From the NCBI RefSeq assembly GCF_053078305.1, contig NZ_CP166879.1: a stretch of 64,000 nt of DNA; one strand, 5' to 3'. Made by a program: the position numbers and the translations under genes. The number at the start of each line of letters is the position of its first letter. Position 1 is the stretch's first letter. The notes beneath the pieces are model-generated. The model ran no database searches. It had not been told where the DNA came from and saw only the letters and a list, made by a program, of their open reading frames with translations. Of the stretch, positions 2,404-10,817 are shown in pieces.

Positions 2404-2600
2404 TCTACTCCGCAACACACTTCGATATACATCACAATTAAGGAAATCTACTTACAAGTTTGCATCACTGTAATGCGATCTGGTTCAAATAATTCACTTT
2501 CAAATGAATGCGTCAGTGGTGGCAAACGCATCAGGATCAAAGTGAACATCACGAAACTTCTTACAATGGCGCATCACCTTCGGCATAAAAGGAAAAGAAG

Positions 2601-4151
2601 ATGCCCACTTCTCATGAAAATGCACTGCAACAACGTTGCCAGCAAATTGTCACCAGCCCAGTGCTTAGCCCGGAGCAGAAGCGCCATTTTCTGGCACTGG
2701 AAGCAGAAAACAATCTGCCTTACCCACAGCTTCCTGCCGAAGCCCGCCGCGCGCTGGATGAAGGTGTAATCTGCGATATGTTTGAAGGTCATGCGCCGTA
2801 CAAACCGCGCTATGTCTTACCCGATTACGCCCGTTTTCTGGCGAACGGTTCCGAATGGCTGGAGCTGGAAGGCGCGAAAGATCTTGATGACGCACTCTCT
2901 CTGCTGACCATTCTTTACCACCACGTACCGTCGGTCACATCGATGCCGGTCTACCTGGGGCAACTGGATGCGTTGTTGCAACCGTATGTTAGAATTCTAA
3001 CACAAGACGAGATCGATGTTCGAATAAAACGTTTCTGGCGTTACCTCGACAGAACCCTGCCAGACGCCTTTATGCACGCCAATATCGGCCCGTCTGATTC
3101 GCCCATTACCCGCGCGATCTTACGTGCAGACGCAGAGTTGAAGCAGGTTTCACCGAACCTGACTTTTATCTACGATCCTGAAATCACCCCTGATGACCTG
3201 CTGCTGGAAGTGGCGAAGAACATCTGTGAATGTAGCAAACCGCACATCGCCAACGGTCCGGTGCATGATAAAATTTTCACAAAAGGGGGCTACGGGATTG
3301 TGAGCTGTTACAACTCACTGCCGCTGGCGGGTGGTGGCAGCACGCTGGTACGCCTTAACCTGAAAGCCATTGTCGAGCGCAGCGAATCGCTGGATGACTT
3401 CTTTACGCGCACTCTACCGCACTACTGCCAGCAGCAGATCGCCATCATCGATGCGCGGTGTGAATTCCTCTATCAACAATCACACTTCTTTGAGAATAGC
3501 TTCCTGGTGAAAGAAGGGCTGATTAACCCTGAACGTTTTGTGCCAATGTTTGGCATGTATGGGCTGGCGGAAGCGGTTAACTTGCTGTGTGAGAAAGAAG
3601 GGATTGCCGCGCGCTACGGTAAAGAAGCCGCCGCAAATGAAGTGGGTTATCGCATCAGCGCGCAACTGGCGGAGTTTGTCGCCAATACCCCCGTGAAATA
3701 TGGCTGGCAAAAACGCGCCATGTTACACGCACAGTCGGGGATCAGTTCCGATATCGGCACCACGCCGGGCGCGCGTTTGCCGTATGGCGATGAGCCAGAT
3801 CCGATCACCCATCTGCAAACTGTCGCCCCGCATCATGCTTATTATTATTCCGGCATCAGCGACATTCTGACGCTCGACGAAACCATCAAACGTAACCCGC
3901 AGGCACTGGTACAGCTTTGCCTCGGTGCCTTTAAAGCCGGAATGCGTGAATTTACCGCCAATGTCAGCGGTAACGATCTGGTTCGCGTTACCGGTTATAT
4001 GGTGCGTTTGTCGGATTTAGAAAAATATCGCGCCGAAGGTTCACGCACCAACACCACCTGGCTGGGCGAAGAAGCCGCACGCAACACTCGTATTCTGGAA
4101 CGCCAGCCGCGCGTGATAAGCCATGAACAGCAGATGCGCTTTAGTCAGTAA
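2601..4151 (+). CDS. yjjI: glycyl-radical-enzyme-like protein (DUF3029 family), function unknown
   Basis: 516-aa ORF; C-terminal RVTGY resembles the glycine-radical motif RVxGY; followed by an activase-like gene. Confidence 0.85.
2987..3002. promoter_or_regulatory. DeoR operator O1 (deoP1) perfect palindrome TGTTAGAATTCTAACA
   Basis: Perfect 16-bp DeoR palindrome; centre-to-centre distance to O2 is 599 bp, the published O1-O2 spacing; lies inside the yjjI ORF. Confidence 0.7.
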
Positions 4152-4986
4152 GATTATCCCCTTCTCCTGCGTTGACGGGCCAGGCAGTCGTCTGGCTCTG
4201 TTTTTGCAGGGCTGCAATCTGCGCTGCAAAAACTGTCACAATCCGTGGACGATGGGACGTTGCAATGACTGTGGGGAGTGCGTGCCACAGTGTCCGCATC
4301 AGGCGTTGCAGATTGTTGACGGCAAAGTGGTGTGGAACGCTGTGGTCTGCGAGCAATGTGATACCTGCCTGAAGAGGTGTCCGCAACATGCCACGCCAAT
4401 GGCGCAATCCATGAGCGTGGATGAGGTGCTTAGCCATATCCGCAAAGCGGTGCTGTTTATTGAAGGGATAACGGTAAGCGGCGGCGAAGCCACGACCCAA
4501 CTGCCGTTTGTAGTGGCGCTGTTTACTGCCATCAAAAACGATCCGCAACTGTGCCATCTCACCTGCCTCGTGGACAGTAACGGTATGTTGAGCGAAACCG
4601 GCTGGGAAAAATTGCTCCCGGTGTGCGACGGCGCAATGCTCGATCTCAAAGCGTGGGGGAGCGAATGTCATCAACAATTAACCGGACGCGATAATCAGCA
4701 GATTAAGCGCAGCATCTGTTTGCTGGCAGAGCGCGGCAAGCTGGCGGAACTGCGTTTGCTGGTAATCCCTGGCCAGGTGGATTATTTGCAACACATCGAA
4801 GAACTGGCGGTGTTTATCAAGGGACTTGGCGATGTTCCGGTACGCCTGAACGCGTTTCATGCCCACGGCGTGTATGGCGAGGCGCAAAGCTGGGCGAGCG
4901 CCACGCCGGAAGACGTTGAGCCGTTGGCTGATGCGTTACGGGAGCGCGGGGTGAGCCGGTTAATATTTCCGGCGCTGTATTTGTGA
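4123..4986 (+). CDS. yjjW: radical-SAM glycyl-radical-enzyme activating protein with extra ferredoxin-like Cys clusters
   Basis: 287-aa ORF; CxxxCxxC radical-SAM motif (CNLRCKNC) plus two CxxCxxCxxxCP clusters; overlaps yjjI end. Confidence 0.9.
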
Positions 4987-4988
4987 CA

Positions 4989-5190
4989 TGCCGGATACGG
5001 CCTACGGTTCGGCACAGACTTGTAGGCCTGATAAGACGCGTCAAGCGTCGCATCAGGCATTGTGCGCCAACTGCCGGATGCGGCGTGAACGCCTTATCCG
5101 GCCTACGGTTCGGCACAAACCTGTAGGCATGATAAGACGCGTTAAGCGTCGCATCAGGCATTATGCGCCGACTGCCGGATGCTGCCTACG
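4989..5190. repeat. BIME cluster (multiple REP units)
   Basis: Repeated GCCGGATGCGGCGTGAACGCCTTATCCGGCCTACG-like units in alternating orientation. Confidence 0.75.
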
Positions 5191-7335: not shown

Positions 7336-7461
7336 AAGCGTCTCCTTTACCATAGTTAATGTCACCGCTTGATATGAGCGTGAAAATCACTCAATGCGAT
7401 ATTTTTAGTGTGGTGCACATCGCGCCTCCCGACAAAGTTCGGGAGGACGAATTACGACGAA

Positions 7462-8067
7462 TTACTTAGTTTTCAGATCATTTTTAACGCTTTTCACACC
7501 ATCTACCGCTTTGGCGATACTTTCAGCACGGTCACTTTGTGCCTGAGAATCGACGGTACCGGAGAGCTGAACCACGCCGTCGGTGGTTTCAACTTTCACA
7601 TGACGGGAAGGGACGATATCGTCCGCCAGCAGTTTGGCTTTGATTTCACTGGTGGTGGCGGTGTCACCCGCGTAGCCCTTCACCGAGCCTTCTTTAGCGT
7701 CGCGAACGTGCAGTTTGTCGCTGACAGAGGTCACCCCTTCAACGCCTTTCGCCACTTTCACTGCCTCTTCGGCCTGAGCCTGGCTTTCAACGAAACCGCT
7801 CAGGGTCACGACTTTTTGATCGGTTTTGACAGAGATATCGGTGCTCTTGATGTTGTCATGATCCACCAGCGCCGCCTTCACTTTCGCGGTGATGGCGCTG
7901 TCATCCATGAAATTACCGACTTTATTCATAGAGCTATCGACTTTTTGCCCTGCGCTTTCATTGGTAGTTTGTGCGTTGTTTTCCGCGTAGGCAGAGCCGG
8001 TCGCGACGGCAGAGGTCAACATTACAGCCAGCAGAGTTTTCGAAATCTTCAGTCTTGTCATAGTCAT
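7462..8067 (-). CDS. osmY: osmotically inducible periplasmic protein, two BON domains
   Basis: 201 aa from [15 protein letters not shown] with signal peptide; matches OsmY. Confidence 0.95.
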
Positions 8068-8459
8068 CGATTTATTCCTGTATGTTTGCTCGTAATTTGA
8101 GCCTGGCAACACGAGGTTGCATTGCTGAATAGGGAGAGACTTCACCCTCTACAGAAGTCAATGGTCGCCATCACAAAAGCGATGAGTGATGAATAACGAC
8201 CATTACAGCCTCTGAATCAGTTATTAATATCGGTAGAATGACAATCGACGGCTTTAGATACTGATATCTACGCATTGAACGGTATTTAACGCCGTCAGAA
8301 ATGTCATCACTTTGTTAAATATAGATCACAATTTTGAAACCGCTCGGGATATCAGCGAAAACATAAGCAAAAGTGAATGTTTTAAGAACATTCCGTAAGC
8401 GGCTAATAAGGAAGGGAAATTGACAGGGCGCAGCGGCTACCGCGCCCTGGAGGCAAGAA

Positions 8460-10049
8460 TTAATGCTCGCGGGTCTGGTGGAACTGAACGTCCGGATAAC
8501 GTTCCTGTGCCAGGCGCAGGTTGACCATGCTGGTAGCGATGTAAGCGAGGTTATCGCCGCCATCAAGCGCCAGTTGGCTTTCGTTCTTACGCTTGAACTC
8601 TTCGAATTTCTTCGCGTCTGCACATTCTACCCAGCGGGCAGTGGCAACGTTGACTGACTCATACACTGCTTCAACGTTGTATTCGCTCTTCAGGCGCGCT
8701 ACCACCACATCAAACTGCAGCACACCAACTGCACCAACGATCAGATCGTTGTTGGAGATTGGACGGAACACCTGCACCGCGCCCTCTTCGGAAAGCTGTA
8801 CCAGCCCTTTGAGCAGCTGTTTTTGCTTCAGCGGATCTTTCAGGCGGATACGACGGAACAGTTCTGGTGCGAAGTTCGGAATACCGGTGAACTTCATCAT
8901 CTCACCCTGGGTAAAGGTGTCGCCGATCTGAATGGTGCCGTGGTTGTGCAGGCCGAGGATATCGCCCGGATACGCTTCTTCAACGTGCGAACGGTCACCC
9001 GCCATAAAGGTCAGCGCGTCGGAGATCACCACATCTTTCGCAGTGCGCACCTGGCGCAGTTTCATGCCTTTTTCATATTTACCGGACACCACACGCATAA
9101 ACGCCACGCGGTCGCGGTGTTTCGGGTCCATGTTGGCCTGAATTTTAAATACGAAGCCGGTAAATTTATCTTCGCTCGCTTCTACGGTACGGGTATCGGT
9201 CTGACGCGGCATCGGCGCAGGCGCCCACTCCACCAGGCCATCCAGCATATGATCAACGCCGAAGTTACCCAGCGCAGTACCGAAGAATACCGGAGTGATT
9301 TCGCCCGCAAGGAACAGCTCTTTGTCGAACTCGTTAGACGCGCCTTTAACCAGTTCCAGTTCGTCACGCAGCTGCTGTGCCAGATCTTCACCAACCGCAG
9401 CATCGAGATCCGGGTTATTCAGCCCTTTAACAATGCGGACTTCCTGAATGGTGTGCCCTTTACCGCTCTGATAGAGATAGGTTTCATCTTTATAAAGATG
9501 GTAAACGCCTTTAAACAGCTTGCCGCAGCCAATCGGCCAGGTGATCGGCGCACAGCCGATTTTCAGCTCGTTCTCAACTTCATCGAGCAGCTCCATCGGG
9601 TCGCGGATATCACGGTCAAGTTTGTTCATAAAGGTGAGGATCGGCGTGTCGCGCAGACGGGTAACTTCCATCAGCTTGCGGGTACGATCTTCAACACCTT
9701 TTGCGGCGTCGATAACCATCAGGCAGCAGTCCACCGCCGTCAGGGTACGATAGGTATCTTCCGAGAAGTCTTCGTGCCCCGGGGTGTCGAGCAGGTTAAC
9801 CAGGCAATCGTGATACGGAAACTGCATCACAGACGTAGTAATGGAGATCCCACGCTGCTTTTCCATCTCCATCCAGTCCGACTTAGCGTGCTGGTTGGAA
9901 CCACGGCCTTTTACTGTACCGGCGGTCTGAATGGCCTGTCCGAACAGCAGCACCTTCTCGGTGATGGTAGTCTTACCGGCGTCCGGGTGAGAAATAATGG
10001 CAAAAGTGCGGCGCTTCGCCACCTCTTGCAAATAAGGAGACAACGTCAT
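8460..10049 (-). CDS. prfC: peptide chain release factor 3 (GTPase)
   Basis: 529 aa from [29 protein letters not shown]-domain motifs. Confidence 0.95.
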
Positions 10050-10139
10050 AATTCTTTCTTCTTGAGTAAGCGGCATCGCGCCGCGCTTGTTGAAAACGAA
10101 AAATTGCGGCTATTTTACCCATCAACGGGGGGGAGGCAA

Positions 10140-10817
10140 TCAGTGTTTACACAGGAGCTGCTCCAGTTCGTGCAACGAAGAAACGGTCCAGGTGGGCGCG
10201 ATGCCTTCTGGTTGCTCGCGATGGTGTGCATTCAGCCAGCAGGTCGCAAGCCCGGCGTTGATGCCACCGAGAATATCGGACTCGGCAGTGTCGCCAACCA
10301 TCAGCACGCGTGAACGGTCAGGATTGCCCGCCTGTTCCAGCGCATAATCGAAAATTTTCTTATTTGGTTTGGCAACGCCAACTTCTTCGGAAATCACCAG
10401 CAAATCGAAGTAATCACGCAGGCCCGTGCGTTCCAGACGCACCTGTTGCAAGGCACTAAAGCCGTTGGTGATGATGCCGATTTTGGCGTTGCCACGAATG
10501 GCGTTAAGCAGAGAAACCGCGCCCGGCAGCGGCGTGCAGATTTCCGCCATCGCATTAATAAAGGCTTCGTTGAGTTTACCCGGCTCGACGTTCAGCCGTT
10601 CGGCCCAGCTCTCAAACCGCCCGTGCTGAAGCTGTAATGAAGTGATCGCGCCGTTTTGATAATCCACCCACAGTGGCTTGTTAACGGCCTGATAGTCCTG
10701 AAAATCTTCAGCGGTAAAGGTGACGCTGTAATCAAGAAACATCCGCTGCAGGCCGGTGAATGAGTCAAAGGTAAACAGCGTTTCATCGGCATCAAAGAAA
10801 ATCCAGTCCCACTTCAT
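10140..10817 (-). CDS. yjjG: HAD-family pyrimidine 5'-nucleotidase
   Basis: 225-aa ORF with HAD motif FFDADETL at N-terminus. Confidence 0.9.

Follow-up and report, generated by a model that had tools for sequence, protein, structure and literature searches.

What does the glycyl radical enzyme (GRE) encoded beside the deo operon of Escherichia coli do, and on which compound does it act? To our knowledge, this protein, YjjI, is the last GRE of E. coli K-12 without an assigned reaction. Its gene, yjjI, and the overlapping gene yjjW lie within the first 10 kb of the DNA analysed here, a stretch of 64,000 nucleotides (nt) from an E. coli chromosome (RefSeq assembly GCF_053078305.1, contig NZ_CP166879.1; the whole stretch is called 'the window' below), in which deoA and deoC on the minus strand are followed by yjjI and yjjW on the plus strand. 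We hold with moderate confidence that the two genes form a functional anaerobic operon for a GRE of a separate lineage and its activase, and that the substrate is derived from a nucleoside. The existence of the pair and its classification are already public in Pfam, NCBIfam and RefSeq, and because the assignment stands there we claim no discovery for it. What is new is a substrate lead from genomic context and a comparison of the active site, which together give a short list of candidate compounds. The features that matter here (amino acids, aa; S-adenosylmethionine, SAM; pyruvate formate-lyase, PFL) are:

2601-4151, plus strand: yjjI coding sequence, 516 aa, orphan GRE of the YjjI family
4123-4986, plus strand: yjjW coding sequence, 287 aa, radical-SAM activating enzyme for YjjI
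4123-4151, plus strand: 29-nt overlap of the yjjI 3' end and the yjjW 5' end, from the coordinates of the open reading frames (ORFs), labelled as translational coupling
3300-3314, plus strand: V-S-C236-Y-N (yjjI codons 234-238), predicted thiyl-radical 'Cys finger loop'
3984-3998, plus strand: R-V-T-G465-Y (yjjI codons 462-466), predicted glycyl radical site, aligned with G734 of PFL
4213-4236, plus strand: CNLRCKNC (yjjW codons 31-38), radical-SAM [4Fe-4S] motif CX3CX2C, covered by Pfam Radical_SAM and Fer4_12
4261-4380, plus strand: two ferredoxin-type CxxCxxCxxxC motifs of auxiliary clusters (yjjW codons 47-86), with Pfam Fer4_9, Fer4_7 and Fer4 over residues 44-90

YjjI and YjjW as a glycyl radical enzyme and its activase

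The preliminary description of this DNA had proposed a GRE-like gene overlapped by the gene of a dedicated activase, next to the deo operon. Its ORF positions were exact, the overlap measures 29 nt, and the pair is divergent from the adjoining deoC and deoA. The annotation of MG1655 holds a matching pair of coding sequences, b4380 (yjjI) and b4379 (yjjW), with equal lengths and an equal 29-nt overlap, and by ORF coordinates the overlap is identical in the loci of Citrobacter, Salmonella, Hafnia, Edwardsiella, Proteus, Providencia and 'Xenophilus'. The MG1655 products are named 'DUF3029 domain-containing protein YjjI' and 'putative glycyl-radical enzyme activating enzyme YjjW', and RefSeq names in other genomes are 'YjjI family glycine radical enzyme' and 'YjjW family glycine radical enzyme activase'. 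At a coverage of at least 80%, 5422 of 5426 complete E. coli genomes contain the yjjI-yjjW segment.

YjjI is a GRE homologue, as had been proposed: it scores 784 bits against TIGR04040 (cut-off 498.3) over model positions 1-497 of 497, and 730 bits against PF11230 (DUF3029) over positions 1-485 of 485. The window's two proteins are the name-giving members of their families (PF11230/DUF3029, TIGR04040 and TIGR04041) and show no differences from them; TIGR04040 and TIGR04041 are 'hypothetical equivalogs', which carry a family name and no tested function. The motif likened to a glycyl radical loop, RVTGY, occurs once, at residues 462-466 and 50 residues before the C-terminus, and agrees with the GRE fingerprint RVxG[FWY] (PMC11528403). 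By an estimate from amino-acid frequencies, chance alone would produce such a pentapeptide in about 1% of proteins as long as YjjI, and therefore the weight rests on its conservation, on the fold and on the neighbouring gene. Across divergent homologues the motif reads [LV][VI]R[VI][TS]G[YF], and G465 is kept in every sequence that extends to it. C236 is invariant in 27 divergent homologues with identities to E. coli YjjI down to 27-40%, and N238 is at least 90% conserved. The stricter PROSITE-type GRE signature, [STIV]-x-R-[IVT]-[CSA]-G-Y-x-[GACV], is not matched by the YjjI segment LVRVTGYMV, which has L at position 1 and T for [CSA]; this pattern is diagnostic and no mechanistic requirement.

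The fold points in the same direction. An AlphaFold2 model built on 73 homologues (pLDDT 93, pTM 0.92) shows the ten-stranded alpha/beta barrel that GREs share with ribonucleotide reductases (RNRs): five strands, a hairpin (231-234/238-241) with C236 at its tip, five further strands and a C-terminal hairpin (460-462/467-469) with G465 at its tip. Class III RNRs are the top 21 Foldseek matches of this model, and in a structure comparison the uncharacterised protein 2ha9 scores 17.5, with unrelated folds at 7.3 or below. Searching the PDB with the YjjI sequence alone gave a best match of only E 0.7. The family profile reaches PFL (E 7e-4) and NrdD in the same database, with C236 placed on C419 and G465 on G734 of PFL. 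The profile-profile comparison (hhalign) with E. coli PflB yields a probability of 95% and E 4e-8 over residues 88-479 and pairs the same Cys and Gly residues, together with R251-L-N253 on R435-A-N437, F157 on W333 and TPGAR on TPDGR; against E. coli NrdD the probability is 54% (E 1e-4), with C236 on C384. The earlier description had named a prediction lacking the barrel, or with the Gly loop misplaced, as what would speak against it. The opposite was found, because the profile alignments place C236 and G465 on the catalytic residues of PFL and NrdD. From the superpositions, and from the alignment of both loops with PFL, the Gly and Cys loops would be expected to touch in the centre of the barrel.

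YjjW carries the radical-SAM motif as C31-x3-C35-x2-C38 and two complete ferredoxin-like clusters, C47xxC50xxC53xxxC57 and C76xxC79xxC82xxxC86, all of which had been read correctly. In GRE activases, a signature G-x-G-x-[KRS]-x3-[FL]-x2-G stands ahead of CX3CX2C, and residues 19-40 of YjjW agree with both parts. The protein scores 396 bits against TIGR04041 (cut-off 250), where the runner-up families are GRE activases, and matches the PflA structures 8fo0 and 3c8f at 4e-19. Furthermore, an activase gene adjoins the yjjI homologue in 83 of 84 loci of a first set, the remaining locus being cut at that point, and in 39 of the 44 lineages of a divergent metagenomic set, which supports the description of YjjW as dedicated to YjjI. 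In the distant YjjI members the activase is shorter, at about 250 aa, and lacks the ferredoxin insert.

The family is small, with 539 representatives at E <= 1e-3 among 1.84 billion cluster representatives, and relatives of YjjI were found in at least 590 of 100,044 species genomes by a scan that reached close relatives only; for distant members, genomic context came from exact-protein look-ups and a metagenome scan. It spans Enterobacterales, Vibrionaceae, Orbaceae, Pasteurellaceae, many uncultured lineages and at least one archaeon, whose locus was recognised by its eIF-1A, NMD3 and RIO1 neighbours. Both genes are under strong purifying selection (dN/dS 0.03-0.05 for yjjI and 0.07-0.08 for yjjW).

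Putative promoter and anaerobic expression

The pair had also been called cryptic, and this part of the description holds for function and fails for expression. A ChIP peak of FNR lies upstream of yjjI at 4,615,181, and the gene has been classed as directly FNR-activated under anaerobic conditions (PMC3688515). In a study of the HU regulon, yjjI and yjjW are likewise listed as FNR-activated (PMC2634741), and in anaerobic Yersinia intermedia yjjI rises 4.3-fold and yjjW 2.1-fold (PMC3792023). We compared the intergenic region between deoC and yjjI across 11 genera, and this alignment yields two features of the yjjI start region:

2527-2567, plus strand: putative yjjI promoter, with the FNR-like site CGCATCAGGATCAA (2527-2540) and the -10 hexamer TACAAT (2562-2567)
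2590-2594, plus strand: yjjI ribosome-binding site AGGAA, seen in the sequence and kept as [AG]GGA[AG] in the alignment

Besides the ribosome-binding site, the sole invariant blocks near yjjI are GGATCAAA (2534-2541) and TACAnT (2562-2567). The spacing of CGCATCAGGATCAA and TACAAT would fit a class II (-41.5) FNR promoter, and the conserved pair of GGATCAAA and TACAAT is a better candidate for the yjjI promoter than TCGATATACATCAC (2422-2435), the best match to the FNR consensus at two mismatches. TCGATATACATCAC was rejected as the FNR site of yjjI because, together with GCGATCTGGTTCAA, it fits the CRP pair of deoP2. The FNR ChIP peak maps to about position 2508 of the window, between the GCGATCTGGTTCAA site and the GGATCAAA block. 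A generic scan for promoters and terminators found nothing beyond the expectation from shuffled sequence. Given FNR activation, the conserved promoter blocks and the strong purifying selection, we regard the pair as cryptic in function only.

The same intergenic region holds two conserved CRP/FNR-like sites in the 11 enterobacterial genera, TTCGATATACATCACA (2421-2436) and GCGATCTGGTTCAA (2475-2488), with centres 53 bp apart, which we take to be CRP-1 and CRP-2 of deoP2, lying at -40.5 and -93.5 relative to a start near 2388. Three palindromes resemble the DeoR operator: TGTTAGTATTCTAACA at 2388-2403 in the gap between deoC and yjjI, the perfect TGTTAGAATTCTAACA at 2987-3002 and the weaker TGATAAAATTTTCACA at 3266-3281. 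They are spaced by 599 and 279 bp and are presumably the classical deo operators O2, O1 and OE. O1 and OE fall within the yjjI coding sequence, where O1 is read as codons 129-134 (Y-V-R-I-L-T), and the putative yjjI promoter lies between O2 and O1. By earlier reports, DeoR loops between O1 and O2; the putative promoter would then sit inside the loop, and yjjI may therefore be under DeoR control. Within yjjW, a sense-strand intragenic binding site for sigma-54, CTGGCTCTGTTTTTGCA, has been reported (PMC4591121), at about 4192-4208 of the window. It overlaps a terminator-like hairpin from our scan at 4177-4198.

Gene neighbourhoods and the substrate

Among close relatives outside the synteny with deo, no third partner is conserved and the activase is the sole conserved neighbour. 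In several gammaproteobacterial groups the pair stands among genes of nucleoside metabolism. The deoCABD operon adjoins yjjI-yjjW in Enterobacteriaceae, Hafnia and Edwardsiella. In all 11 Gilliamella loci nupG-add-cdd-pdp lies upstream on the same strand, with deoB-deoD ahead of nupG wherever the locus reaches that far. A 3.1-kb segment of Haemophilus influenzae contains a YjjI-family gene, a radical SAM gene and a gene for a NupC/NupG transporter (PMC5609409).

More distant members of the family carry such genes too. At one locus whose YjjI is 35% identical to that of E. coli (L096), the cluster comprises a nucleoside hydrolase, an ADP-ribosylglycohydrolase-family protein, a PfkB kinase, a PNP-family phosphorylase, an alkaline-phosphatase-superfamily protein, yjjI, yjjW, and MFS and Bmp genes. 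Another (L098/L099) has yjjI followed by an ADP-ribosylglycohydrolase, a nucleoside hydrolase and ABC permeases, and L095 has an adenosine-deaminase fragment and PfkB near yjjI. For a broader view, metagenomes were scanned with an alignment of distant YjjI members only, and the neighbouring ORFs of the resulting 91 loci were clustered without prior labels. YjjI itself (86 loci) and the activase (74) form the commonest clusters, followed by these families, the first five with their identity from Pfam:

Bmp/PnrA-like binding protein: 26 of 91 loci, in 12 lineages
Two-domain ABC ATPase: 26 of 91 loci
BPD_transp_2 permeases: 20 of 91 loci
IU nucleoside hydrolase: 9 of 91 loci
PfkB kinase: 8 of 91 loci
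RuvA, DNA-alkylation repair protein, aminotransferase and AI-2E transporter, the next named and unrelated families: 7 of 91 loci each

The usual arrangement in the divergent loci is a single operon, Bmp-yjjI-yjjW-ATPase-permease-permease. When the YjjI sequences are collapsed at 75% identity into 44 lineages, Bmp, the hydrolase or PfkB is found in 15 of the 35 in which four or more neighbours are visible; by a rough estimate, a Bmp operon is expected in about 1% of random 18-kb windows. The neighbouring Bmp proteins match nucleoside binders of solved structure (TmpC/PnrA of Treponema pallidum at 7e-52, pneumococcal PnrA, and BmpA/BmpD of Borrelia), compared with only 7e-12 for the riboflavin binder RfuA. 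A further cluster, of about 368 aa, is found upstream of Bmp at nine loci of a single lineage; neither it nor the small ORFs downstream of yjjW have a Pfam match, and they look like membrane or unknown proteins.

The common denominator of these neighbours (a hydrolase with a ribokinase-like kinase, a phosphorylase with a phosphopentomutase, NUDIX and DeoC) is an imported nucleoside or its (deoxy)ribose phosphate. The conserved neighbourhoods thus suggest a substrate from nucleoside uptake or catabolism, which may be an intact nucleoside or the (deoxy)ribose or pentose-phosphate part of one. The invariant residues R70, R251, R392, R462, H159, N161, H376, Q378 and E305 would suit a polar, possibly phosphorylated ligand.

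Some lineages show arrangements of their own. In one (L124, L128 and L173), yjjI and the activase gene are separated by a gene for a NUDIX hydrolase. In three lineages (L110, L112, L113 and L131), nrdD-nrdG, an AP endonuclease, a family-4 glycosyltransferase (MraY/WecA-like) and an HhH-GPD glycosylase precede Bmp and yjjI, so that nrdD-nrdG stands a few genes upstream of yjjI. A Crp/Fnr-type regulator is encoded beside yjjI in several lineages. In Proteus, ytjB, serB and radA directly precede yjjI-yjjW without a deo operon between them; in E. coli the same three genes are found just beyond deoCABD, and the adjacency to deo was therefore gained or lost within the Enterobacterales.

Several points weigh against a nucleoside-derived substrate. 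The nucleoside context is missing in Proteus, Providencia, Vibrionaceae, 'Xenophilus', the archaeal locus, an actinobacterium-like locus and some further cases, and common descent of a single chromosomal region could account for the three gammaproteobacterial cases. The counts from the 91 loci were made without a matched random-anchor control and depend on a crude longest-ORF calling rule. A need for radical chemistry is unexplained, as hydrolases and phosphorylases already process ordinary nucleosides. In the literature that could be searched, which leaves out most subscription journals, we found no functional study of YjjI or YjjW and no paper tying the family to nucleoside metabolism; the earlier statement that no substrate had been reported agrees with this. 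Finally, yjjI of E. coli and Salmonella biclusters with narG and other genes of nitrate and nitrite respiration rather than with deo, with FNR and NarL-like motifs (PMC3228777).

This last result leads to the alternative that survives best, unlikely as we judge it to be: YjjI would be a genuine GRE whose substrate is a different small anionic metabolite, from anaerobic respiration or nitrogen metabolism, and the deo and Bmp neighbourhoods would reflect chromosomal coincidence or shared regulation. Single-cell data group yjjI with nrfA, frdA, dmsA and ynfE, many lineages lack nucleoside genes nearby, and R251 aligns with R435, which binds the carboxylate in PFL. Co-expression with respiratory genes is, however, to be expected of any FNR-activated operon. 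Moreover, the unbiased clustering ranks Bmp transporter genes first among recurrent neighbours, these genes often flank yjjI-yjjW within one operon, and independent gene sets (hydrolase/PfkB/PNP; deo/nup/add/cdd; nupC; NUDIX) converge on one pathway, which argues for a nucleoside-derived substrate.

Some features of the E. coli locus lie outside the pair itself. Beyond yjjW, a gap with REP-type repeats is followed by yjjV, yjjU, osmY and prfC. At 4990-5185, between yjjW and yjjV, this gap holds two tandem copies of a 95-nt element of REP/BIME type, 89% identical and spaced by 101 nt, and these account for a median of 38 matching places per genome in the search of E. coli genomes. Long ORFs on the plus strand at 64-963, 1594-2370, 7408-8100 and 8823-10313 run antisense to deoA, deoC, osmY and prfC, respectively. 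Their translations are of low complexity and rich in Arg and His, and they look like shadow ORFs, not genes.

Relation to known enzyme classes and a possible reaction

How YjjI relates to the described GREs bears on what it may catalyse. With class III RNR (NrdD) it shares the ten-stranded barrel, the thiyl Cys on a finger loop, the C-terminal glycyl loop and the absence of a Glu at the second position after the Cys. In the hhalign alignment the two proteins also have in common a conserved Asn beyond the finger loop (N253 on N412) and an E-G pair (E305 on E463), and the role of NrdD in nucleotide and nucleoside metabolism fits the context proposed for YjjI. The two proteins are, however, only 13-17% identical, at the modest hhalign probability given above, and YjjI lacks the ATP cone, the specificity-site region, the Zn-binding C-terminal domain, the reductant Cys175 and Met382. 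With the PFL-domain GREs (PflB/TdcE; CutC, glycerol and propanediol dehydratases, HypD and IslA; PflD/YbiW) it shares RVxG[FWY], TPxGR and the pairing of R251-x-N253 with R435-x-N437, and with the eliminases among them the type of activase with two auxiliary clusters. In contrast to these enzymes of 760-850 aa, YjjI has 516 aa and largely misses the N-terminal helical region. The Pfam families PFL-like, Gly_radical and NRDD (PF13597) have no match to E. coli YjjI at E <= 0.01, where PF11230 is the only one. YjjI is also outside IPR004184, the set used by published GRE surveys, and it is easily overlooked because it belongs to neither of the two InterPro families on which those surveys draw. 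In structure YjjI is slightly nearer to NrdD, and in sequence profile and activase it is nearer to the PFL group. By these comparisons of sequence, YjjI is placed outside both the PFL-domain enzymes and the class III RNRs as the founder of a small separate lineage, and its reaction therefore probably differs from theirs.

A stripped-down second anaerobic RNR, with the class III core but without ATP cone or zinc domain, making the deoxy forms of nucleotides or nucleosides, would agree with the nucleoside-related context, with the proximity of yjjI to nrdD-nrdG in some loci and with faint PF13597 matches in some members of the family. We consider it very unlikely. The position of NrdD C175 falls into a gap beside R70-Y71 of YjjI, leaving this residue without a counterpart, and V234 takes the place of Met382, two residues before the thiyl Cys. 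The chain ends 50 residues after the Gly, without the Zn-binding C-terminal domain, and 516 aa leave no room for an ATP cone. YjjW, with its two extra ferredoxin clusters, is much closer to the activases of PFL-type enzymes and eliminases (122-138 bits) than to NrdG (49-62 bits). Genomes with yjjI keep nrdD as well, so that YjjI coexists with NrdD and does not replace it. Indeed, E. coli nrdD mutants do not grow under strict anaerobiosis, and yjjI is therefore no substitute for nrdD.

It is highly improbable that YjjI is a small paralogue of PflB/TdcE acting as a formate-lyase on pyruvate or another 2-ketoacid. Such a role would explain the profile match to PflB with its shared R-x-N and TPxGR elements, and the Haemophilus orthologue was named a pflB homologue in older annotation (PMC3228777). 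PFL, however, has an adjacent Cys pair, C418-C419, in which C418 carries the acyl intermediate, and YjjI has S235-C236. The N-terminal third of PFL, including R176, is missing from the alignment, the PFL-like and Gly_radical models find no match, and none of the loci examined has focA-like or CoA-related neighbours. That YjjI has lost catalysis and survives as a relic, or serves a structural or regulatory role with the GRE fold kept, we find scarcely credible: no phenotype or activity has been reported and the K-12 label in RefSeq is still that of a DUF3029 protein, but the low dN/dS of yjjI, the retention of the Cys and Gly from enterobacteria to an archaeon, the co-translated activase that is always kept and the regulation of the operon by FNR all stand against it.

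Going by family membership, the operon would work as follows. YjjW, with one SAM cluster and two auxiliary [4Fe-4S] clusters, would reductively cleave S-adenosylmethionine, and the 5'-deoxyadenosyl radical so formed would take a hydrogen from Gly465 of YjjI, giving a stable, oxygen-sensitive backbone radical. During turnover this radical would be passed to Cys236, which forms the tip of the finger loop in the minimal ten-stranded barrel, and the Cys236 thiyl radical would abstract hydrogen from the substrate. A net reduction like that of NrdD is unlikely because the Cys/Met relay of reductants is missing, and acyl transfer as in PFL is unlikely because there is no second Cys. Our working guess is that the thiyl radical may take its hydrogen from the ribosyl ring and that water or the base may then be eliminated through a spin-centre shift, by analogy with the first half-reaction of RNRs and with 1,2-eliminases of the CutC type; chemistry this specific is a rather improbable guess at best. 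The GRE 1,2-eliminases (CutC, GDH, PD, HypD and IslA) use a Glu at the second position after the Cys (GCxE) as general base. YjjI has Asn there (S-C236-Y-N238), so the base would have to be another residue than this canonical Glu, with the invariant E305 as a candidate. By their titles, PDB entries hold PflD with 1,5-anhydromannitol-6-phosphate bound and YbiW with glycerol, and the former ligand provides a precedent for sugar-phosphate substrates.

We believe that a nucleoside-derived substrate, if true, would mean a new radical reaction in the deo/nup/cdd/add pathway, which was thought to be fully mapped, and would point to an anaerobic route in anaerobes of the gut and the environment whose nucleoside import runs through Bmp-type transporters. 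Tentatively, and with less than even confidence, we go one step further and propose that the YjjI family is a third, minimal GRE lineage whose undescribed radical reaction belongs to anaerobic nucleoside catabolism or salvage, the target being the ribosyl moiety of an imported nucleoside or a (deoxy)pentose phosphate. Should this be so, the position of yjjI by the deo operon of E. coli would be functional, not accidental.

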